A DNA stretch of 64,000 bases, taken from the NCBI GenBank assembly GCA_963844965.1, contig CAWJQC010000004.1:32001-96000 (forward strand), written 5' to 3'. Within the stretch, counting starts at the first letter, position 1. Every line of letters starts with the position of its first letter. The position numbers and the translations under genes were made by a program. Positions 1 to 57,886 of the stretch are shown in pieces. The stretch is from an uncultured bacterium. GTDB lineage: Bacteria; Patescibacteriota; Minisyncoccia; UBA6257; 2-01-FULL-56-20. Under the pieces are notes generated by a model. That model made no database searches, had not been told where the DNA came from, and saw only the letters and a list, made by a program, of their open reading frames with translations.

Positions 1-511
1 GGGCAGCTTCCGCTACTCGTGCCTTGTTACGACTTATCCCATGTCACCGAGCTTAAGCTAAATCGCCTGAGGCGATCTTCACCTACTCCCGGCTCCCTTG
101 GATTGACGGGCAGTGAGTACAGGACTCGAGAACGTATTCACCGCAACATAGCTGATTTGCGATTACTAGCGATTCCAGCTTCATGAGGGCAGGTTGCAGC
201 CCTCAATCCGAACTGAGACCGGGTTTGATGGGATTAGCTCCGCCTTGCGACTTCGCAACCCATTGTCCCGGCCATTGTAGCACGAGTGTAGCCCAGGGCA
301 TCAGAGGGCCATGCTGATTTGACGTCATCCCCTCCTTCCTCCCCGCTCAGAAACCACGAGACATGAGACACACGTCACGACTCACAAATTTATTGTGCAT
401 CGTGCTACGTGTATCGTGCATCATGAACTCTGAGCGGGGCAGTTTCGCGTGACACTTGTAACACACGATAGGGGTTGCGCTCGTTACCCCACTTAAGGGA
501 ACACTTCAAAG

Positions 512-542
<31 letters not shown>

Positions 543-669
543 ACGTGACGTCCTTGAGAGAGGGCCCGCCTTTCGGCAAGCTTTCGTCACGAATTTCAAG
601 CCCTGGTAAGGTTCCTCGCTTACTGTCGAATTAAACCTCATGCTCCACCGCTTGTGCGAGTCCCCGTCT

Positions 670-701
<32 letters not shown>

Positions 702-1161
702 TCCCAGGCGGCCGACTTAACGCGTTAGCTCCGCCACTCCGAGGGTCGATACTCGAAACAGCAAGTCGGCATCGTTTAGGGCGTGGACTACAAGGGTATC
801 TAATCCTTTTTGCTCCCCACGCTTTCGCGTCTCAGAGTCAGGAAGGTCCCAGTGCCATGCCTTCGCCTTTGGTGTTCCGCACGATATCAACGGATTTCAC
901 CCCTACACCGTGCGTTCCAGGCACCTCTAACCTCCTCTAGTTTCGCCGTATCTCCTGCACTTCCACCGTTAGGCGGTGGGATTTAACAGAAGACGCACGA
1001 AACCTCCTACACGCTCTTTACGCCCAATAAATCCGGATAACGCTCGAGGTCTACGTATTACCGCGGGTGCTGGCACGTAGTTACCAACCTCTTTCCGTAT
1101 GGTACGGTCACCCAGCACTTTTGGAACGAACTTTTCTAATTTGCTCAAATTTTTGGAGGTA

Positions 1162-1190
1162 TTGACAACAGCAATCACTTCTGCTATAAT
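1162..1190 (+). promoter_or_regulatory. Perfect consensus sigma70 promoter (TTGACA-17 nt-TATAAT) inside the 16S insertion, antisense to the rRNA.
   Basis: TTGACA at 1162-1167, a 17-nt spacer, TATAAT at 1185-1190. Confidence 0.6.
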
Positions 1191-1269
1191 GCCCATAGCA
1201 CATTGGGAGACCAACGTGCCGCACGTCGGGCCTCAGCCCTTGTGCAATTCCCAAAAGGAGAATTGATTT

Positions 1270-1461
1270 ATGCGTGCCAAATTCCCGTCACAAGTCACGG
1301 ATCGAATACTGGAAGCAGCCAAGAAAGAGTACTCCTTCCAGATCAATCATGCGGAATTAGGGCGGCGGCTGTTTACGCGCAAGCACTGTGGCACGAGAAT
1401 GGTTCAGGTAAAAGTCTTTCTGCAAGGAAGACAACAACCTGCCATACTCGGAAAACAATAA
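1270..1461 (+). CDS. 63-aa basic hypothetical protein encoded antisense inside the 16S rRNA insertion.
   Basis: AAGGAG RBS at 1255-1260, 9 nt upstream of ATG 1270. The ORF is MRAKFPSQVTDRILEAAKKEYSFQINHAELGRRLF.... It is preceded by the consensus promoter and followed by an intrinsic terminator. Confidence 0.45.
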   Translation: MRAKFPSQVTDRILEAAKKEYSFQINHAELGRRLFTRKHCGTRMVQVKVFLQGRQQPAILGKQ

Positions 1462-1542
1462 CCACAGATGCACGGACGCCGCAGTATGCCCCGTTTGTTT
1501 GCTGGCATATGTCATGACTAACGACTAGCTGCCACCTTTCTA

Positions 1543-1577
1543 CTGCCACCAGAAGCTTTCCGGTGGCAGTTTTTTAA
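1543..1577 (+). terminator. Intrinsic terminator after the 63-aa ORF.
   Basis: ctgccacc-agaagctttcc-ggtggcag hairpin followed by TTTTTT. Confidence 0.6.
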
Positions 1578-2337
1578 ATCCAAAAATTTGAGCAAATTAG
1601 TTTTCCCGCCAAAAGTGCTGGGTTCTTCCCATACTACCGCAGTTTACAACCCGAAGGCCTTCTTCCTGCACGCGGCGTCGCTCGATCAGGCTTTCGCCCA
1701 TTGTCGAATATTCTCGGCTACTGCCACCCGTAGGTGTACGAACCGTTTCTCAGTTTCGTCGTTGGGGGTCAGGCTCTCACCTCCCCTACCGGTCATAGCC
1801 TTGGTAGGCCGTTACCCTGCCAACTAGCTGATCGGACCTAGGCCGCTCTTGGAGCGTCTTGCGACTTTGGATGCGAATGGCTTTCGCCCCCGCATCATCA
1901 TCAGGAATTACCCCGCCTTTCGGCGAGCTGTGCCCGTCTCCAAGGTACGTTACCAAGGTGTTACTAACTCGTTCGCCGCTCACTATTTTCCTTGCGGAAA
2001 ATAGTTCGCTCAACTTGCATGCCTTATCCACGCCGCCAGCGTTCATCCTGGACCAGGATCAAATCCTCAGTAAAAATCGCGCATTTATTCAATACGCGAG
2101 ATTGTGCGCCATGCATGACGCCCAAACTCGCGCATCTCACTCGTGCGTGAGTTCATACCGCGATTGATTTATTGATCTCGGTTTATTTCAATTCCAAACC
2201 GAAAAATGAATCTTATTGGGACAACTAAAAAACTCTTTTTTATTTACTTTTCTCATATTAATTTTTCAATCTGCAGTCGGCGCAGTCCTTTACCCCGCAC
2301 ATTACCTTCGGTAATAACGGGGCGAGCAACAAAACAT

Positions 2338-2497: not shown

Positions 2498-2770
2498 ATG
2501 GCCAAGAAAGACCTGCATCCCCAATATTATCCCGCCGCCAAGGTGCACTGCGCCTGCGGAAACACTTTCACAGTTGGCTCAACCAAACCCGAGATTCAGG
2601 TTGAAATCTGCCACAAGTGCCACCCGTTCTATACCGGCGAAGAAAAACTGATAGATACCGCTGGACGCGTGGAGAAGTTTAAGATACGACGGGCCAAAGC
2701 AGTCACGGCTCCCAAGAAAAAGCCCCGACGCGCCCGAGCAACGGAGGACAAGAAGGAACATCGGAAATAA
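2498..2770 (+). CDS. rpmE: 50S ribosomal protein L31 (Zn-ribbon type).
   Basis: [12 protein letters not shown]...CACGNTF...[10 protein letters not shown]...[12 protein letters not shown]. Confidence 0.9.
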
Positions 2771-2813
2771 TCCCCCTACACATTGTTTGAATTTTGACAA
2801 TGTGTAGGGAAAA
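2771..2813. repeat. CCCCTACACATT palindromic hairpin, copy B, immediately after the rpmE stop.
   Basis: tccccctacacattg-tttgaatttt-gacaatgtgtaggg. Confidence 0.6.
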
Positions 2814-2829
2814 CCAAGGAAACAAGGAA

Positions 2830-2861
2830 GCGGCCTCTACGTGAGGCCGCTTCGCGTTCTT
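2830..2861. terminator. GC hairpin terminator between convergent rpmE and the histidine kinase.
   Basis: gcggcctc-tacgt-gaggccgc followed by ttcgcgttctt. Confidence 0.45.
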
Positions 2862-2955
2862 GCTCGGATAAAAATCGGTCGTATTGCAAACTGTCCGATA
2901 TTTGTAAATCGGCTGCCCGCCACAATCGGCTGACCTCAAAAACGCGAAACTATTT

Positions 2956-3717: not shown

Positions 3718-3822
3718 ATTAAAATTCTAACATTGCGCCCAGAAATTTTGTAGATGCACTTGAAAAGCATGCCGCTTCCGTGTTATATTCGGATAAGCTA
3801 ATTTACATCTCTGTGAGGCGCG

Positions 3823-4665
3823 ATGAATTTTATGTATCGGATGGGGTTTTCGGCAATTCTGAAAGTGCGGAATGTCTACCTTGCCTTCCCAAGATGCTAT
3901 AAAGCGGCTGCCGAATGCTACGAAAAAATCGTTTGGTGGCACCTGCTCGTGGCGCCTATCATTCTCATAATCGGCGGCTTCGTGTGGGGCATCGTGACCG
4001 GCGGCCTTTTGTGGGGTCTGAAATGCGGCTCCGGCGTTTTCTTCCTGTTCTTCGAAGCCGAGGGCGTAATCGGATTCTGGGCAAAAGTCATCGGCATCTC
4101 GTTACGTGGGGCGGTGGTCCTCTCCATATTGTGCAGTTCTTACGATATCTTCTGTTTGTTCATACTATCAAACAAAGCGGTGGCTGGCCTAAGGCGTTCG
4201 GTAAAAGCCAACCCGGAAAAGGCCGGCGACTCCTGGACTGACAAATTTTTCTTTCTTGTGCGGGCATTTGAATCCCGCGCTCACGTGGCGGCCGCTGAGG
4301 TTGAAGACAAGGTAAAAAATCTGGAAACTGAATCGGACAACTCGCGGTTCGCCAGAGCATACCGTTGGTTCAAAAGACGCAAGTTACTTTACGCGACGCT
4401 TCCGATCTTCGGATTCGTAGTCGGCGCCCTTTTCATCGGCGTCCCCCTGTCCGTTGTCTGTGGGCTGAATCAGTTGCTTTCCTTTGTCCTAATCGTATCC
4501 GGCAATGCACTGAAGATGATCGCGGCCGGCTATACCGTCTTAAAGATAGGAATGTTCGGCGTCATTCTTTCAGTTGTAGCTGTGGCGTTCGCCGAAAAGG
4601 CAATCAAGTTCTGCATTAGAAAATGGCGGCATCGCCATCTGCAACATAAGAAGGGCCTCGCTTAG
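3823..4665 (+). CDS. Hypothetical polytopic membrane protein.
   Basis: 280-aa ORF with several hydrophobic helices. No recognisable family. Confidence 0.4.
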   Translation: MNFMYRMGFSAILKVRNVYLAFPRCYKAAAECYEKIVWWHLLVAPIILIIGGFVWGIVTGGLLWGLKCGSGVFFLFFEAEGVIGFWAKVIGISLRGAVVLSILCSSYDIFCLFILSNKAVAGLRRSVKANPEKAGDSWTDKFFFLVRAFESRAHVAAAEVEDKVKNLETESDNSRFARAYRWFKRRKLLYATLPIFGFVVGALFIGVPLSVVCGLNQLLSFVLIVSGNALKMIAAGYTVLKIGMFGVILSVVAVAFAEKAIKFCIRKWRHRHLQHKKGLA

Positions 4666-4724
4666 CGGGGCCTTATTTAATCAATGGCAAAATCCGAGTA
4701 GGCGACAATTTCCCCCGACCATAA

Positions 4725-5126
4725 TCAGGGCGCAACATTCAACAATGTCTTGATTTGATCGACCGTCTTGTTCAGATCGTCGGATTTTTTGATGTACCCA
4801 TCGGCGCCCAATTCCCCGGCAAAGCGACGGTCAATTTCCTGTATTTCCCGCCGCGGATCGCCCAAACTTGATAGAAAAACCACTTTTATATTTTTGGTTT
4901 CGGGGTCACTCTTCAACCGCAATACTGCGTCGGCGCCGCTTACTCCCGGCATCTTCACGTCCATTAAAATTAAATCCGGCTTCAATTCTTTAGCCATTTT
5001 TATCCCGCTCTCACCGTCCCCAGCCGTTTCCACTCTAAATCCAGCACTGGTCAACTTCATGCCAAAAATCTCCAGAAAGTCCGGCTCATCGTCAACAATC
5101 AATATCAAGGGTTGTTTATCTGTCAT
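4725..5126 (-). CDS. Stand-alone response-regulator receiver (CheY-like).
   Basis: LIVDDEPDF...DLILMDVKMPGVSG...K. No output domain. Confidence 0.8.
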   Translation of the reverse strand: MTDKQPLILIVDDEPDFLEIFGMKLTSAGFRVETAGDGESGIKMAKELKPDLILMDVKMPGVSGADAVLRLKSDPETKNIKVVFLSSLGDPRREIQEIDRRFAGELGADGYIKKSDDLNKTVDQIKTLLNVAP

Positions 5127-5240
5127 ATTACCTGCTTTAATTATACAATATCATTATATCATAATTGGCACTAAACACGGGAAGCGTGCCGAAACGCGTA
5201 GAGCGACAGCCGCGCCGGCACAATCCCCATTTACGAAACC

Positions 5241-5309
5241 ATGAACAAAATAATCCTAGAAATCCGGGCTGGAACGGGCTTGCCCGCCATAGCCAAATTT
5301 TATAAATAA
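5241..5309 (+). pseudogene. 22-codon relic or uORF that re-codes the N-terminus of the downstream release factor.
   Basis: [22 protein letters not shown] compared with the downstream [23 protein letters not shown]. Similar protein, different codons. Confidence 0.4.
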
Positions 5310-5337
5310 TTCAAGTACGAAGTGGTGCAACAAAAGC

Positions 5338-6057
5338 ATGACAAATAAAGTTATTTTGGAAATAAGGGCGGGGGCGGGAGGTGACGAAGCCGCTATCTTT
5401 GCGGGCGATCTCGCGCGAATGTACCAACGCTACGCCGCAAGGCGCGGCTGGGGATTCGCGACGCTTGACTCAAACGAAACATCGCTCGGCGGCTATAAAA
5501 CATTTATCGCCGAGATAAAAGGAGAAAATGTTTATGACGCGCTGAAAAACGAATCTGGCGTCCATCGCGTCCAGCGCGTGCCGAAAACCGAGAAATCGGG
5601 ACGTGTACACACCTCAACCGCTTCAGTGGCTGTGATTCCCGAAGTGGAAGCAAAACTGGTTGATGTCAACCCGAACGACTTGGAAGTGACATTTTCTCGC
5701 GCCGGCGGCCCCGGCGGCCAGAACGTCAACAAGGTTGAAACGGCCGTAAGGATCTTGCACAAACCGACCGGCATCGTCGTTTCCTGCCGTGAAGAACGCT
5801 CACAGAACGCCAACCGCGAAAAAGCTCTGGAAATTCTGCGCGCGAAATTATTCGAACTTCAGCGCGAACAAGCAGCCGGCAAAGTAAGCGAAATCCGCCG
5901 CGAACAAATCGGCTCCGCCGAACGCGCGGAAAAGATACGCACATATAATTTCCCAGAAGACAGAATCACCGACCACCGCCTCGGAAAGAAGTTTCACAAC
6001 ATAGAGAAAATTCTTGACGGGGATTTGGAACCGATAGTCAAGGCTTTCCAAAAATAA
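5338..6057 (+). CDS. Class-I peptide chain release factor with domains 2-4 only (GGQ present, PKT tripeptide). N-terminal domain 1 is absent.
   Basis: [17 protein letters not shown]...[19 protein letters not shown]. Only ~210 nt upstream is free, so there is no room for domain 1. Confidence 0.75.
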
Positions 6058-6067
6058 AACGAGGCGG

Positions 6068-6409
6068 TTATTTCCGCCTCTTGACCTTCTTGGTTTTGGA
6101 ATCCCGCCTTCCCGCGGGCTCCGGCTCCGTCCTACCGCCAAAATACATCCGGCTGTCAATTTCAATCCTGGTGCCGCATCCCGGGCAGGGAACATAATGA
6201 ACAATAAAATCCTGTGTGCCGACAGCGCCTCCGTCAACTGTCTGGATTTGCGCGACCACCTTTTTTCCATCATTTTTCTCAAGTTGGAATTGGCATGCGC
6301 AAATACTGTTGTTGCATACCCAAACTTTTTCCAGCCAATCAGGCCAAACGCTCTTAGATTTCCATTCTCTTACTACGTGCACGCGCCGACTAACCAGTAT
6401 TTTCATTGC
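6068..6409 (-). CDS. Small zinc-ribbon protein (CPGC...C...C), hypothetical.
   Basis: ORF with CNNSICAC ... CPGCGTRIE. The start is taken at the internal MKILVS. Confidence 0.3.
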   Translation of the reverse strand, partial: AMKILVSRRVHVVREWKSKSVWPDWLEKVWVCNNSICACQFQLEKNDGKKVVAQIQTVDGGAVGTQDFIVHYVPCPGCGTRIEIDSRMYFGGRTEPEPAGRRDSKTKKVKRRK

Positions 6410-11100: not shown

Positions 11101-11101
11101 G

Positions 11102-11512
11102 TTGCTGGCAATCCGTAAGCCGGATTCTGTCGCGCCTGCCTGTCGGCAGACGATGCGATCATTTATCTGGGCCCTTGATTGCTCGCGGGCTCAAGCGGCA
11201 CTTCCACCTCATCGGCGGACACGGCCTTGCACCCAGTAAGGATTTAGCCGTTTCATCTCCACTTTTTTATCCCTATGGCGGAGCTGGACCGACTAGCTTG
11301 GGATTGGGTCCGTCCGACTTTTTCAAATCGGACCGTTTCTGCTCGCACCTCTATTCTTACGAACGACGGCTGTTAGCCGCTACTATTTTATCCCTCCCCA
11401 GTTTTGCCAGTAATGTCACTGGCAAAACTGGGGAGGGATGGTGTCCGGACTTTCCTCCCTACATTTTCTAGAATTTTAAGAAAATGTAGGGCGATCGCCT
11501 AGATTGCCAGCT
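11102..11512 (-). ncRNA. rnpB: RNase P RNA (bacterial type).
   Basis: rc contains P4 strands GGAGGAAAGTCCGGAC and ACAGAATCCGGCTTA. P1 GCTGGCAATC/GATTGCCAGC. P3 hairpin CCCTACATTTTCT/AGAAAATGTAGGG. A 21-bp P-helix tccctccccagttttgccagt/actggcaaaactggggaggga. Confidence 0.85.
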
Positions 11513-48537: not shown

Positions 48538-49740
48538 TTATTTCAGTATCTTAGTCACCGCTCCTGCGCCGACCGTCTTGCCGCCTTCGCGGATGGCAAA
48601 ACGCTGTTTTTCTTCAAGCGCGACCGGGAAATGAGTTTCACGGTGAGTTTAACGGTGTCGCCCGGCATGACCATTTCCATGCCTGCCGGCAAGGGTCACT
48701 TCGCCCGTAACATCGGTCGTCCTGATATAGAACTGCGGCTTGTAGCCGTTGAAGAACGGCGAGTGGCGGCCGCCTTCCTCTTTTGAAAGCACGTAAACCT
48801 CGCGCTCGAATTCCGTGTGCGGCGTGACGCTGCCCGGCTTCGCGACAACCTGCCCGCGCTCCACGTCTTCTTTCTTCAGGCCGCGGAGCAGAACGCCGAC
48901 GTTGTCGCCCGCCATGCCTTCGTCCAAGAGTCTTATTGAACATTTCAATGCCCGTGACGACGGTCTTCTGCCGTCGGCCTGCAGGCCGACGATCTCCACT
49001 TCTTCGTTCACTTTCACCTTGCCGCGCTCCACGCGGCCGGTCACGACCGTGCCGCGTCCTTCAATCGAGAAGATGTCTTCGATCGGCATAAGGAACGGCT
49101 TGTCGAAGTCGCGGACCGGATCGGGAATGAATGTCATCCACCGCTTTGATAAGGTCCAAGATCGGTTTCGCGTCCGGGTCGTCGGCGATTTCGCGGCCAA
49201 CGCTTTCAAAGCCGAACCGCGGATGATCGGAGTCGTGTCGCCCGGGAATTCGTATTTCTTCAAAAGCTCGCGGACTTCGGACTCAACGAGATCAATGAGT
49301 TCCGGATCGTCCACCTGATCGCACTTATTAAGAAACACGACGATGGTCGGCACGCCGACCTGGCGGGCAAGCAAAATGTGCTCGCGCGTCTGCGGCATCG
49401 GGCCGTCGGTCGCGGCGACGACCAAAATCGCGCCGTCCATCTGCGCGGCGCCCGTGATCATGTTCTTGATATAGTCGGCGTGTCCCGGCGCGTCAATGTG
49501 CGCGTAGTGGCGCTTCTCGGATTCGTACTCCGAATGGTGCAGGGCGATCGTGATGCCGCGCGCCTTTTCCTCCGGAGCGTTGTCAATTTGGTCCACTCTC
49601 TCTTCTTTCTTCGTCAGACCCTTCAAATGCAAAACGTGCATAATCGCGGCGGTCAGGGTCGTCTTGCCGTGGTCAACGTGGCCGATCGTGCCGATGTTCA
49701 TGTGCGGCTTGGCCCGGTAGAATTTTTCTTTTTCAGCCAT
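48538..49740 (-). CDS. tuf: Elongation factor Tu, with at least four 1-nt indels (near 49185, 49150, 48690 and 48600).
   Basis: [14 protein letters not shown]...DAPGHADY...NKCD. The C-terminus ...[51 protein letters not shown] can only be reconstructed by switching frames. Confidence 0.85.
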
Positions 49741-51044: not shown

Positions 51045-53149
51045 TTACCGTTTTTTGCCTTCGATAATCAACTGCGCAATGTTCTGCGGCACTGGCTCAT
51101 AATGGTCAAATTCCATCGTGAACGCTCCCCTGCCTTGCGTCATGGAACGCAACTCGGTCGCGTAGCCGAACATTTCCGCGAGCGGAACTTTGGCGTCAAT
51201 CACTTTCACGTTGGGCCGGTCGGAAATTTCCTCAATCCTGCCGCGCTTGGAGTTCAAGTTGCCGCTCACCTCGCCCAAAAATTCTATCGGGATGATAACC
51301 TGAAGCTTCATTATCGGCTCCAATATGACCGGCTTCGCGCGCTTCGCCGCTTCCTGCAGGGCGATGGAGCCAGCAATTTTGAAAGCCGCCTCCGACGAGT
51401 CAACTTCATGGAAAGAGCCGTCATAGAGCGAAACTTCAAGGTCGGTCATCGGGTAGTGGGCAACGACCCCCTTACTCAATGCTTCCACCACACCTTTTTC
51501 CACCGCCGGGATGAATTCGTTCGGAATGATCCCTCCCTGATATCGTCTATGAAAACAAATCCCTTGCCGCGCTCCAAGGACTTCACGCGCAGCCAGACAT
51601 GTCCGTATTGTCCGCGGCCGCCGGATTGCCTGATATATTTGCCTTCCGCCTCCGCTTCGCCCATAATCGTTTCTTTATAGGCAACCTGCGGCCGCCCCAC
51701 CGAACCCTCAACACCGAACTCCCGCTTCATCCTGTCAACAATAATTTCCAGGTGCAACTCGCCCATGCCAGAAATAATCGTCTCGCCAGTTTCCAGGTCG
51801 CCCGCCACGCGGAAAGTCGGGTCTTCTTCCGCCAAGCGGTGCAGGGCAATGCTCATTTTTTCCTGGTCGGCTTTCGTCTTCGGCTCAATGCGAATGCCGA
51901 TCACCGGCTCGGGGAATATGATCTTCTCAAGCACTATCGGCGCGTCGGGACTGCAAAGCGTGTCGCCGGTCGTCGTATTCTTCAAACCGACGATCGCCGC
52001 GATATCTCCGGCATGCACTTCCTCCATTTCTTCGCGGTGGTTGGCGTGCATCCGCACCACGCGGCCGACACGTTCCTGCTGGTCCTTCTTGGAATTCAAA
52101 ACGTACGTGCCGCGCTTCAAAACGCCGGAATAATTCCGGAAATAGGTTAAAGTGCCGACGTACGGGTCTGTCGCAACCTTGAAAGCCAGCGCCGAGAACG
52201 GCTCTTCGTCCTTGGGGTGCCGCACGATATCGGCGCCGCTCTTCGGGTCAATGCCCTTAACCGGAGGAAGGTCCGTCGGCGCGGGCAAATATTCCACAAC
52301 CGAGTCAAGCATAAATTGCACGCCTTTGTTTTTCAGGGCCGAACCGCAAAGCACCGGCACAATTTTGTTGGCAATAACGGCTTTGCGCAAAACGCGGCGC
52401 AAATCTTCAATGTCAAGCTCAGTACCATCCAAATACTTGGTCATCAAGGCATCGTCATTGTCCACAATGCGTTCCACAAGTTCATGCCGCGCCTTCTTCA
52501 CGTGCACTTTCATATTTTCCGGCATCGGAATTTCTGTAATCTTTTCGCCATGTTCACCCTCCGAGCCGTACGCCTTTTCGGTTAAGAGGTCTATCATTCC
52601 CACGAATTCACCCTCAAGGCCGATGTTCAACTGCAAAGGCAGTGCGTTCGGCGTGAGCCGTTCTTTGATTGACTGCAAACTTTTTTCAAAGCTCGCACCC
52701 AAGCGGTCAAGTTTGTTAATAAAGCAAATCCGCGGCACGTGGTACTCATCGGCATAGCGCCAGTTCGTTTCCGACTGCGGCTCAACACCTGCGACGCCAT
52801 CAAAGACGACAACCGCGCCGTCCAAAACGCGGAGCGAACGCTTCACCTCCACCGTAAAGTCAATGTGCCCCGGCGTGTCAATCAAATTTATCATATGCTC
52901 AAATTTTTTGTCGCCCTTGCGGTAAGTCGGAATCCAGAACGCCGTCGTTGCGGCGGAAGTAATCGTAATTCCCCTCTCACGTTCCTGCTCCATCCAATCC
53001 ATCACCGTGTCGCCCGTGTGCACCTCGCCGATTTTGTGACTGACGCCCGTATAAAAAAGCACCCGTTCGCTCACGGTGGTTTTGCCGGCATCTATATGGG
53101 CGATGATGCCGATGTTACGGACCTTCTCGACAGGATACATTCTAGGCAT
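51045..53149 (-). CDS. fusA: Elongation factor G, with a 1-nt frameshift near 51520 splitting it into two ORFs.
   Basis: [25 protein letters not shown].... The C-terminal ORF 51045-51503 continues ...[27 protein letters not shown]. Confidence 0.85.
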
Positions 53150-53363
53150 TGAATTTGAATAAACTTATTTTAATTCTCGCGCATATTGATGCGGGAAAGG
53201 GGTCGGGAAAACGGGAGTTTTCCCGTATAGGAAAAAGGCCGGAGGCCGAGTTAAAAACCGAGAGGTTTTTAAGGAGCGGGTTGCTGTATAGCGACTCGCG
53301 ACCGTCTATATGCGCGATTATTCCTATATTTCTTACTTTTTCTACTGGATATTGTCGCGGCAT
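53142..53363 (-). pseudogene. Re-coded relic of the EF-G N-terminus (first 20 codons) directly upstream of fusA.
   Basis: [21 protein letters not shown] then nonsense. Different codon usage (AT-rich) from the real fusA start. Confidence 0.45.
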
Positions 53364-55829: not shown

Positions 55830-55902
55830 GTCCCTGTAGCTCAACGGATAGAGCGTGTGGCTTCGAACCACAAGGTTGCAGGTTCAAATCCTGCCAGGGA
55901 CG
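55830..55902 (+). tRNA. tRNA-Arg (UCG).
   Basis: GTCCCTGTAGCTCAACGGATAGAGCGTGTGGCTTCGAACCACAAGGTTGCAGGTTCAAATCCTGCCAGGGACG. Confidence 0.85.
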
Positions 55903-55928
55903 CAAAGGTGGGAGGGTGAAGATATCAT

Positions 55929-55978
55929 ATGTGGCTTCGAACCACAGGTTCCAGGTTCGAGTCCTGGCGAGGGCACAC
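55929..55978 (+). other. 5'-truncated copy of a tRNA-Arg(UCG) paralog (anticodon arm + T-arm + acceptor 3' strand). Candidate att site.
   Basis: The 17-nt tgtggcttcgaaccaca is identical to the intact gene. The T-arm/acceptor is ccaggttcgagtcctggcgagggca. Confidence 0.6.
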
Positions 55979-56072
55979 ACAACATTTCGTATCGCGGCAT
56001 CGTGGGGGCCGACGCTCTAGCGCGACCCCGAGAGGCCTACCGATACGGAATATCGTCCTCCTTATTTCTCTA

Positions 56073-56324
56073 TTAAGAGCCGGCAAAAATACTTTTGATA
56101 AGGCTTGTAATGCCGCCTGCTATCAGCACGATCACAAAACCGACTGCCGCATACGTAAGGGTCTTCTTCCCTTTCGAAAATTTTTCAGGATCGCCAGCCG
56201 CCGTCATCATTTGAAACCCGCCGACAAGCACCATTATACTTGTGAGCGGCGCTGCAATATCGTAAAAAAGAAATCCCGCCACACTATTCGCGACGGACAC
56301 CAAGCTGCCCCCCCATTCGTACAA
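56073..56324 (-). CDS. Small 2-TM membrane protein (pilin/TrbC-like is speculative).
   Basis: 83-aa ORF with two hydrophobic helices. Confidence 0.35.
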   Translation of the reverse strand: MYEWGGSLVSVANSVAGFLFYDIAAPLTSIMVLVGGFQMMTAAGDPEKFSKGKKTLTYAAVGFVIVLIAGGITSLIKSIFAGS

Positions 56325-56491
56325 TTTGGATCGAACGGATTAAAAAGTTGGTTGGGAGGGCACGCGGCAAAAGCTAACTTCGCGACGGTTAAGGCGCTGA
56401 CTGTTATTAAAATCTTTGTTGTGCGGCGGATAATATGCATATGGATTATTATAGCATACGAGATAGCGTGGCAGAAGCCCATTTTGTTTAG

Positions 56492-57886
56492 CTATTTCTG
56501 CAAGCTCAGAATTTTATTCCTGAACGTCAACTTACTCTTGAAGCAAGATAGCAATTCGCGTTTCTCGACCGTGCTGCCCTTTTTGAGAAGATATTTTGCG
56601 TACGTTTTAAGGTCAATTTCTTTAGTGGCCGCTTTCGATCCTTCTCCCAAGACATCGTTCGCGAATTTGCGATATCGTTCCATCTCGTCTTCGAATTTCT
56701 TCTGCATCCCAATCTCACTGATATCCATCTCGTCAATGATAGCGAGAAGTTGAGCGATCAATTCCTCTTCGCGAATGTATCCGCACTTGCAATCCTTATC
56801 TTTCGAGCGTGAGCATCCATAGTACACGTACCGCGCCGTCGTTCCATCCTTGTGCGCCTTATATTTCTCGCACGCACTGATGCCCGATCCGCATAGGCCG
56901 CACGAGATCAGTTTCGTAAACGAAAATTCCTTTATCTCCGACCTGATGACAAAATCTCGGTGCAGCTGCTCCTGTACTTTATCGAACAGCTCCCGCGAAA
57001 TGATTGCTTCGTGCTTGCCGCTGTACCAGTTACCGCTCTTCAGTGGATACTCAAAGATGCCGCAGTAAAATGGATTTTTGAGGATGATATAAATATTGGA
57101 TAACGAAAGCACTTTCCCATTCTTTGTTCTGAATTTGATTTCCGACTTCAGCCAATGATAAAGCTTCCGGCCCGACCATTGTTCGTCGGCGACTTTCTGG
57201 AGCATTTGCTTGATGACGGGCGCTCGCAGGGGATCAATGATAACTTCACAAGGACGGTCGGTGCTCTTCTCGTTAAGATACCCTGTCGGTGCGATAGACG
57301 GACGCAAACCTTGTTCGCACCGCATCCGTAATCCGCGCTTCACGTTTTCCGATTTGTTATCATTCTCAAGTTTCGCTTGGCTGCACAAAATCATCAACAT
57401 GAATTTCTCGCTCGGCGAGTTCGTGAATTTCTGGCTGAAGGTTCTGATCTCGATAAGTAATTTTTGATCCATCAAGTCCACCAAGCCGCCAAGGTCGCCC
57501 GCGTTGCGGCTCAAGCGATCCGGCGCCCATGTAAGGATACCGTTGAATTCGCCGGAACGAATATCAATAAGCAACTCGTTAAAAATTTTTCGCTGGCCGA
57601 CAGCTTTTGCGGAATGGCTTTCCTTTCTAACTTCGGCGATCTCAAGGTTATCGCGCTCGGCGATTTTCAGCATCTCCTTTATCTGACTATCAATGGAAAG
57701 CACTTGCTGTTCCTCGCTCTCCGTACTTTTCCTCGCATAGAGGCAGTATTTTATTTTTATCGCTTCGGCCTTTGTCGCAGAAACGCCCGACTGATCCCAG
57801 CCCTTTGGTATATTTGTTATTTTCTCCATACCTAAGGGATGCCGCAACGGCGGAAGGAGTCCAGAGCATCCTTGTCGGTAACTCAA
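56492..57886 (-). CDS. Large serine recombinase (resolvase domain + recombinase domain + zinc ribbon).
   Basis: YARKSTESEEQ...SIDSQ catalytic region. C-terminal CGLCGS...YYGC. Confidence 0.8.
   Translation of the reverse strand: MSYRQGCSGLLPPLRHPLGMEKITNIPKGWDQSGVSATKAEAIKIKYCLYARKSTESEEQQVLSIDSQIKEMLKIAERDNLEIAEVRKESHSAKAVGQRKIFNELLIDIRSGEFNGILTWAPDRLSRNAGDLGGLVDLMDQKLLIEIRTFSQKFTNSPSEKFMLMILCSQAKLENDNKSENVKRGLRMRCEQGLRPSIAPTGYLNEKSTDRPCEVIIDPLRAPVIKQMLQKVADEQWSGRKLYHWLKSEIKFRTKNGKVLSLSNIYIILKNPFYCGIFEYPLKSGNWYSGKHEAIISRELFDKVQEQLHRDFVIRSEIKEFSFTKLISCGLCGSGISACEKYKAHKDGTTARYVYYGCSRSKDKDCKCGYIREEELIAQLLAIIDEMDISEIGMQKKFEDEMERYRKFANDVLGEGSKAATKEIDLKTYAKYLLKKGSTVEKRELLSCFKSKLTFRNKILSLQK

Follow-up and report, generated by a model that had tools for sequence, protein, structure and literature searches.

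The prfA locus

This analysis concerns prfA, the gene for release factor RF1, and a short reading frame directly upstream of it, in a 64-kb stretch of contig CAWJQC010000004.1 from an uncultured bacterium of the Patescibacteria. The whole of this stretch is called the window below. The closest protein names place it near Parcubacteria, Paceibacterota, Lipton-, Jorgensen- or Brennerbacteria. For comparison, loci of relatives were fetched (about 800 kb in total), which are referred to by L numbers (L001, L004 and so on) where they have to be told apart.

The prfA open reading frame (ORF; 5338..6057, plus strand) was recognized by profile, structure and homologue matches and encodes an RF1 of 239 amino acids without domain 1. 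It contains the tripeptide for codon recognition, PKT, at residues 82-84 (5581..5589, plus strand) and the GGQ motif at residues 126-128 (5713..5721, plus strand). On the same strand a mini-ORF of 22 codons followed by TAA (5241..5309), hereafter the prfA stub, came forward from the ORF list, a hidden Markov model (HMM) and the comparison with the prfA head. Its codons 1-13 (5241..5279, plus strand; MNKIILEIRAGTG) are an orphaned copy of that head, and within its codons 14-22 release factor (RF) homology is not detectable. A spacer of 58 nt (5280..5337, plus strand), with a weak hairpin at its beginning, connects the stub head to the true prfA start. A divergent gene for a response-regulator receiver (4725..5126, minus strand), which is a conserved neighbour, sets the upstream limit of prfA and leaves 211 nt of intergenic DNA only, in line with the roughly 210 nt counted in the sequence-only reading of this DNA. 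The promoter scan yielded a single promoter-like site in the intergenic region, CTGTCA-18-TACAAT (5120..5149, plus strand), and within it lies the box TATACAATAT (5142..5151, plus strand), which is also found upstream of prfA in the closest syntenic relatives. Directly 3' of the prfA stop the scan found a GC-rich hairpin, GAGGCGG-TTATTT-CCGCCTC (6061..6080; strand not set), and scored it as resembling a terminator of the convergent ORF, on the minus strand. No T-run follows on the plus strand, where the hairpin is only a possible end of prfA transcription.

The 239-residue product is an RF1 without domain 1

The prfA product matches the Pfam PCRF domain (PF03462; 2.7e-45) at profile positions 100-194 of 194 only, and the Pfam RF-1 domain (PF00472; 1.7e-39) completely, at residues 106-214. 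The NCBIfam models for RF1 (TIGR00019 and NF001859) are matched to their end from position 104 of 347 and 112 of 361, with 371.2 bits (cut-off 400) and 359.5 bits (cut-off 423.25), respectively. Both scores stay under the equivalog cut-off because the first third, domain 1, is missing; the deficit equals that domain. The RF2 (prfB) model gave 246 bits, compared to 371 and 360 for RF1. In the structure alignment residue 5 corresponds to residue 107 of Thermus RF1 and residue 111 of E. coli RF1, and the identity to solved RF1 chains across domains 2-4 is 48-60%, with RVPKTE aligned to RVPVTE. The missing part is the whole N-terminal domain 1, around 105-110 residues. The sequence-only reading had the ORF start at domain 2 and keep GGQ and PKT, and in both respects it was correct. 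The likeness to RF-H (PrfH) or ArfB that it raised finds no support, considering that the 371 bits for RF1 are far above the scores for PrfH (TIGR03072; 76.5 bits, cut-off 166.65) and ArfB (NF006718; 52.4 bits, cut-off 100, with only residues 108-140 matched). Moreover, the upstream neighbour is a divergent response regulator and not the rtcB-type gene expected for PrfH.

Neither a second release factor nor a domain-1-like ORF was found in the 64-kb window. The 48 long ORFs of the window end in TAA (20), TGA (16) and TAG (12), and since all three stops are used the code is standard and RF1 activity is needed. Judged by its sequence, the 239-residue protein is an ordinary working RF1 in a natural form without domain 1, which should read UAA and UAG via PKT and release the peptide via GGQ. 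PMC1586002 describes domain 1 as serving RF3 and as dispensable for codon recognition and peptide release, reports that truncated RF1 is functional in vivo (citing Mora et al. 2003), and states that prfC orthologues were not found in small-genome bacteria. An RF1 without domain 1 would not be recycled by RF3 and would have to leave the ribosome unaided, and we infer that the clade to which the protein belongs lacks RF3.

The short form is fixed in a clade

The best 120 database clusters (76-100% identity, Parcubacteria/Paceibacterota) all have lengths of 233-267 amino acids. The proteins begin 3-8 residues before the sequence ILEIRAG, apart from a few that were called with longer N-terminal extensions, and they derive from NCBI, JGI, ENA and Logan assemblies. 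The shared neighbourhood consists of a histidine kinase, a hypothetical protein, one to two response regulators, prfA, a hypothetical protein, a NUDIX protein, an ADK-like protein and aspS. Within the called genes of the syntenic relatives no PCRF or RF-1 match was found except the short RF1. With the whole clade being short and a domain-1 ORF absent from both the window and these gene sets, the split gene that the sequence-only reading offered as one explanation of the mini-ORF finds no support. The number of residues that precede the EIRAG motif is 75-100 in other Parcubacteria and 113-125 or more in ordinary bacteria, and the clade therefore marks the extreme of a tendency towards shorter N-termini. 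The short forms constitute a small minority among the cluster representatives at 50% identity. The NCBI label on the relatives reads 'PCRF domain-containing protein' only. Our literature search returned no paper on a short RF1 in bacteria of the candidate phyla radiation (CPR), and we found no earlier description of such a natural RF1 variant in the CPR literature. Taken together, the data show that an RF1 without domain 1 is fixed as the normal prfA product in a whole clade of Paceibacteria (Patescibacteria/CPR).

One could still regard the short RF as an additional copy, either decaying or with an auxiliary role (a pseudogene, a rescue factor of the RF-H/ArfB type or an assembly truncation), and expect the real RF1 to be encoded elsewhere. 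The scores under the equivalog cut-offs (371 vs 400 and 360 vs 423) could be taken that way, the window comprises only 64 kb of the genome, and fusA and tuf look frameshifted (see below), so that the assembly may hold indel errors. We nevertheless consider this very improbable: the score deficit is that of domain 1, solved RF1 chains share 48-60% identity with domains 2-4, there are 120 homologues of the same length (76-100% identity) with conserved synteny and from four assembly sources, the scores for PrfH (76 vs 167 bits) and ArfB (52 vs 100) fall short, and the rtcB neighbour is absent. The more specific suspicion of a pseudogene copy or an assembly artefact is ruled out within the reach of these data, because the short form is conserved (76-91% identity) in independent assemblies and in conserved synteny.

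A copy of the prfA head upstream of the gene

The window stub differs from the prfA head at 12 of the 36 nucleotides compared, which leads to two amino-acid changes only, and it is matched by an HMM of RF N-termini with E = 8e-7 for that sequence. Chance cannot account for a resemblance of this degree. The mini-ORF, noted earlier as mimicking the RF start with other codons, is indeed a copy of prfA's own first 13 codons within the 5' leader of the gene. To establish how widespread such copies are, the head motif was searched as a regular expression in the fetched DNA. Besides the RF genes this recovered five upstream stubs, all sitting just upstream of short prfA genes, and one match inside a full-length RF1. 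In terms of the about 34 short-RF1 lineages among the matches listed, four carry a stub: the window, L004/L005 (RF identity 88%), L006/L007 (82%), where two stubs stand in series, and L016 (69%), where the stub is without a start codon. The about 30 others have none, including the closest relative L168 (91%) and L001, L129 and L169-L174, all of which have the box TATACAATAT directly before the prfA ATG. This absence from the closest relatives argues against an obligatory regulatory upstream ORF (uORF), another of the earlier explanations. In L001, L004, L006, L129, L168, L170 and L171 the box immediately precedes the start of RF1 or of the stub. In L004 and L006 the stub ATG occupies the usual place of the prfA ATG after the box, and in the window the leader is longer, with around 90 additional nt separating the stub ATG from the box.

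In each stub the likeness to the RF head extends to codons 11-14 (RAG[AT]G) and is lost afterwards; all breaks fall within three codons of the junction between RAGxG and GDEA. Past codons 12-18 the HMM of RF N-termini detected no RF homology in the stub tails; a resemblance by eye of AKFYK in a stub tail to ARMYQ was dropped for that reason. The tails comprise 9 to 33 codons and vary in length, sequence and stop codon (TAA, TGA, TAG). In L004, L006 (at both junctions) and L016 the stop codon of the stub touches or overlaps the ATG that comes next; in the window 28 nt separate the two. The spacers are short (23-85 nt). The product of the L004 stub (40 amino acids) retrieved only itself among 5.8 billion proteins.

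When the structure of the leaders was compared with that of shuffled sequences, the z-scores were -0.73 for the window, -1.31 for L004 and -4.49 for L006; the L006 leader is structured because GGCGAGSSTCGCC palindromes follow both of its stubs. The fold-back hairpin with which the window stub ends has no more than the stability expected from shuffles (z = -0.01), and the resemblance of its 3' arm to an inverted copy of the last 13 nt of the stub is not significant compared to shuffles either. The same holds for a duplication of the promoter box in the prfA spacers, the score of which was reached by 872 (window) and 213 (L004) of 2000 shuffles, and spacer motifs occur as dispersed repeats in the window at chance-level counts. 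Among the prfA spacers only those of L006 and L016 have a palindrome in common; 19 of 20 nt are alike in the spacer of the first L006 stub (L006a) and that of L016. Further, at L006 3748..3815, 30 nt past the prfA stop, the palindrome of the L006 stubs recurs, as GGCGAGCCTCGCC, and is followed by EPIVKAFQR and a stop, a stub of the RF C-terminus. The functional prfA of L006 is thus bracketed by two N-terminal stubs and one C-terminal stub. A candidate C-terminal stub in L016 lies inside a likely gene on the opposite strand and was treated as chance.

Some other features were observed around prfA in the relatives. L001/L002 contain a 144-nt element (2797..2940) with perfect terminal inverted repeats of 20 nt, inserted in the prfA promoter box and with TTATAC on both sides, which resembles a miniature transposable element. 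Tandem repeats of 7-8 nt (for example TTAGTCA and GCTCGTTA) are present upstream of the prfA promoter box, toward the divergent response-regulator gene, in L168 (1..70), L129 (about 1310..1390), L006 (about 2750..2830) and L004 (about 2750..2800). In the stub-bearing locus L004 a reverse-transcriptase gene (RVT_1; 3742..4710, minus strand) lies directly downstream of prfA.

Stubs of the same kind at fusA and lepA

An unbiased scan, in which first every window ORF and later the whole set of fetched loci were searched for upstream copies of their own N-terminus, gave one further strong match in the window, namely fusA. Here a stub ORF of 73 codons (53142..53363, minus strand), delineated by the scan and by comparison, precedes the functional copy of fusA, encoding EF-G (51476..53149, minus strand; continuing in the ORF 51045..51503). 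The first 20 codons of the stub copy the fusA head and differ from it at 18 of 60 nucleotides and in one residue only. The break lies at the P-loop, and the TAG of the stub shares nucleotides with the fusA ATG. Its product has relatives in the database: P0122 precedes fusA in L177-L179, and P0123, with the lepA-type head IRNFVIIAHID, precedes lepA in L175/L176. The fusA and lepA stubs are always broken at the P-loop; in the fusA stub of L177 the conserved ID residues have been lost.

The spacer that follows the fusA stub (53175..53302, minus strand) was found to be conserved by alignment and structured by folding. Spacers of this kind at fusA and lepA measure 105-130 nt. Over about 125 nt it is about 90-94% identical among the fusA loci of the window and L177 and the lepA locus of L175, whereas identity is only about 70% in the heads of these genes and no alignment was possible for the 15-35 nt in front of the true ATG. 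Its folding yielded z-scores of -3.4 as RNA and -4.8 to -5.1 as DNA. The 3' end of the spacer is an inverted copy of the P-loop codons of the host gene (18-19 nt, 83-89% complementary) and is able to pair with the end of either head. No Rfam match was obtained for the stub region at E up to 10, and nothing relevant for the whole window at the gathering threshold. The spacer core is absent from the viral contigs scanned, extra copies were not found in the 64-kb window, and a relation between the prfA spacers and the fusA/lepA spacer was not detectable with nhmmer. An intergenic relative of the fusA/lepA spacer is present in L001/L002 (166..300; nhmmer E = 2e-4), and it carries two perfect 20-nt palindromes CCTGCCTGCCGGCAGGCAGG. 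In L180/L181, where the order is S12-S7-stub-fusA-tuf, the spacer is a different one of 104 nt. In L181 it is flanked by a perfect direct repeat of 99 nt, covering 37 nt of leader and the first 20.7 codons, and this repeat is nearly perfect in L180; L181 shows the appearance of a fresh event.

The prfA stub is therefore one case within a wider pattern that includes fusA and lepA. The comparisons show that the stubs recur at these three genes, that they break at ultra-conserved motifs and that in at least one case they start out as a direct repeat. With respect to the window genes themselves, fusA is interrupted near 51530 by a frameshift of 1 nt within a G-run, and tuf (48649..49740, minus strand) specifies 363 amino acids only, with domain 3 cut short. 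These breaks suggest assembly indel errors or real frameshifts.

Drift, joined alleles or selection

For the eight stub/gene pairs pooled, the synonymous differences (pS) amount to 0.94 and the non-synonymous differences (pN) to 0.08; orthologous functional heads of different genomes are at the same level, with about 1.05 and 0.04-0.08, respectively. In a simulation (2000 runs) the stub was identical to the gene at the outset and drifted neutrally, with only synonymous changes being accepted in the gene. The simulation predicts 52 amino-acid differences over the eight pairs, where 13 are observed, and not a single run fell below 40. Old stubs are therefore not neutrally decayed copies made in situ. 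This leaves two readings: the joining of alleles that had diverged beforehand, or purifying selection acting on the stub peptide.

Three observations point toward the joining of diverged alleles: the sporadic distribution of the stubs, the mosaic nature of prfA as a result of recombination, with an identity between L004 and L168 of 97% over codons 180-210 and of about 70% over codons 15-60, and the match of the second L006 stub (stub b) to the functional heads of other lineages (88-95% nucleotide identity). The retained ATGs, the frames that stay open across the spacers and the stop-start overlaps point toward selection. A direct comparison of the fusA stubs of the window and L177 gave a pN of 0.19, against 0.08 for the functional heads. 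Together with the loss of the ID residues in L177 this implies that the constraint on the stub is relaxed, although it is not gone. All spacer substitutions between the same two loci are non-synonymous in the stub frame, and the tail peptide is therefore not selected. A comparison of the G+C content at third codon positions did not separate native from foreign heads. Adenine mutagenesis as by diversity-generating retroelements was dismissed, as the differences are not confined to A positions. A reading of IRAG as a SecM-like arrest motif was set aside, since all RF1 and RF2 proteins contain it.

Interpretation of the stubs

On balance we lean towards the view that the stub is a scar, the orphaned 5' end of a gene left behind by recurrent duplication or replacement. 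A relic of gene replacement was among the three explanations of the sequence-only reading, and it is the one that the comparison favours over the split gene and the uORF. The first 13 codons of a prfA allele would have been stranded upstream by an in-place duplication or replacement of the 5' end, with the break in the most conserved stretch of the gene, between RAGxG and GDEA. This motif may have acted as a recombination hot spot between diverged alleles, or as the target of an element. The different codons most probably stem from diverged alleles joined by recombination and not from deliberate re-coding. As part of the prfA mRNA's 5' leader, the stub would be transcribed from the one promoter-like site (5120..5149), and it is probably translated as a short uORF, without being a required regulator. 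The stubs that survive may be those whose frame ends near the true start, such that expression is unharmed.

Several points weigh against this interpretation. The rejection of neutral drift for an in-place stub leaves a heterologous origin or a selected, hence functional, peptide. The main prfA head of the window is nearer to the head of the closest relative (five differences) than the stub is (nine, by manual count), so that either copy may be the native one. In five of six junctions (L004, two in L006, L016, prfA and fusA of the window) the stub stop overlaps or abuts the next start, the exception being prfA of the window with its 28-nt gap, and stop-start overlaps are typical of translational coupling. 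Further, the break is constant within three codons in the five prfA stubs and coincides with the P-loop in every stub of fusA and lepA, a fixed position that plain recombination does not predict. Finally, the fusA/lepA spacer is conserved far above what is expected for neutral DNA, which points to an element with a function or mobility of its own.

These points bear on two other explanations. The mini-ORF could be a working leader peptide, where the position of the stop or a hairpin sets the flow of ribosomes to the prfA start by translational coupling or attenuation. That could tie RF1 synthesis to the capacity for termination or elongation, and the fusA and lepA stubs would then work alike, the conserved spacer acting as sensor. 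It would account for the amino acids of the stub head being kept despite saturated synonymous sites, for the ATG being retained in four of five prfA stubs and in all four fusA/lepA stub ORFs (window, L175, L177, L180/L181), and for frames that remain open across the spacer and mostly stop a few nucleotides from the next ATG. The location of the sole promoter-like site upstream of the stub fits as well, as do the conservation, folding and pairing capacity of the fusA/lepA spacer (90-94%; z = -3.4 to -5.1) and the structured L006 leader (z = -4.5). On the other hand, around 30 of the 34 short-RF1 lineages, the closest relative included, do without a stub, and the tails, stops and copy number vary, up to the loss of the start codon in L016. 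There is no reason why a sensor shared by three genes should copy the N-terminus of each of them, the fusA spacer changes between the window and L177 are all non-synonymous, the prfA leader of the window has no structure signal and the L177 stub lacks the conserved ID residues. Given these constraints, we regard a leader peptide as rather unlikely. A further explanation, in which stub and gene are joined in expression by ribosomal bypassing, frameshifting or RNA splicing and the stub is the real N-terminus, could invoke the hairpin after the stub head and the pairing between the 5' exon-like end and the 3' end of the fusA spacer. It is hardly credible, however, as the downstream head has its own ATG and represents the form found in all stub-less relatives, the outcome would merely be the same protein, and a matching take-off and landing arrangement with an adjacent stop is absent. 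Models for introns or ribozymes in Rfam were not matched in the whole window or the fusA stub region. The spacers are too small for group I or group II introns.

Alternatively, the scar could have been left by a small non-coding mobile element whose insertion sites are the ultra-conserved motifs of translation-factor genes. CPR (Paceibacteria) elements of an undescribed class would home to RAGxGG in prfA and to the P-loop in fusA and lepA, with the site being recognized through a complementary terminal stretch, and the prfA mini-ORF would be an eroded footprint. Insertion would be tolerated because it brings or duplicates the promoter-proximal head, so that the gene restarts without splicing. 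In agreement with this, one spacer of about 125 nt sits at the same P-loop position in fusA (window, L177) and lepA (L175) and is better conserved (about 90-94%) than the heads (about 70%), with 15-35 unalignable nucleotides before the ATG. Each spacer ends in an inverted target copy specific to the host gene, and a related copy occurs in the intergenic region of L001/L002. Similarly, a perfect 99-nt direct repeat surrounds the second spacer type in L181, the serial stubs of L006 fit repeated insertion into a regenerated target, and the distribution is sporadic. Yet the prfA spacers (23-85 nt) show no detectable relation to the fusA/lepA spacer, and only L006 and L016 share a palindrome. Further copies were found neither in the 64-kb window nor in the viral contigs, a transposase, integrase or nuclease is not linked, and parts of the spacer resemble fusA (D2 in L177), so that it could be a rearranged gene fragment. 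To our knowledge a target duplication of 40-100 nt has no precedent, which also counts against an element. Altogether we hold a mobile element to be a doubtful candidate for the origin of the stubs, with the orphaned gene start remaining our preferred interpretation.

Comparison with known systems

The window protein aligns end to end with domains 2, 3 and 4 of canonical RF1, has the PxT (PKT) and GGQ motifs and scores much higher as RF1 than as RF2; it differs by lacking domain 1 and scoring under the equivalog cut-offs. It has the same architecture as the engineered N-terminally truncated RF1 and RF2 of E. coli (Mora et al. 2003, as cited in PMC1586002), which, in the summary given there, recognize stops, release in vitro and work in vivo but do not stimulate RF3. 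In contrast to these constructs the truncation in the window is natural, fixed and conserved in a clade, and the activity of the protein is predicted. RF-H (PrfH) and ArfB are likewise class-I release-factor relatives without domain 1, but they measure about 200 and about 140 amino acids, compared to 239 here, and the window protein fails both models, keeps the RF1 tripeptide and domain 4 and has no rtcB partner.

With respect to the stubs, short frames in the leaders of translation-factor genes bring to mind the leader regulation and autoregulation of release factors, for which the +1 frameshift of prfB is an example. Stop-start overlaps in some relatives add to the likeness. Unlike such leaders, the stub is not conserved in close relatives, has no defined sensing codon and copies the N-terminus of its own gene. 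Rickettsia palindromic elements are also short structured non-coding DNA within conserved genes of reduced genomes, but these are read through in frame, whereas here the gene is restarted by a duplicated head. A displaced gene end is known from the icd gene of E. coli, where integration of e14 or phage 21 brings in a replacement gene end with mostly synonymous differences, and the original end persists as a short fragment, icdC (PMC13626634). The window similarly has a displaced fragment next to a functional end with mainly synonymous differences. In e14/icd, however, the 3' end is concerned and a 15-kb prophage with an integrase separates the copies, while here it is the 5' end, the copies are 23-155 nt apart and neither a recombinase nor any ORF but the stub lies in between.

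Other features of the window

The 16S rRNA gene of the window (1..2074, minus strand) measures 2074 nt, compared to 1533 nt for the Rfam model, which corresponds to an insertion of around 540 nt. Insertions in rRNA genes are known from CPR bacteria. The RNase P RNA (11101..11510, minus strand) scored 100.2 bits against a gathering threshold of 100, which suggests a divergent form. A gene for a large serine recombinase (56492..57886, minus strand) lies beside a tRNA-Arg gene (55830..55903) and a partial tRNA-like match (55915..55967), and the region 55830..57886 has the appearance of an integrated element in which a tRNA end is duplicated.

Implications

The stubs indicate that the 5' ends of essential, ultra-conserved genes have been rebuilt again and again in these genomes, and that the resulting scars can pass for regulatory uORFs or split genes. 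If the fusA/lepA spacer is a mobile element, it would represent a new way for selfish DNA to reside inside essential genes. For annotation, it is of relevance that current pipelines under-name these RF1s and label the stubs as hypothetical proteins. The short RF1 fits the pattern of a pared-down translation machinery in CPR bacteria. The clade apparently terminates translation with an RF1 that lacks domain 1 and thereby constitutes a natural experiment on the role of domain 1, on recycling by RF3 and on the contact with L11 and the L7/L12 stalk.

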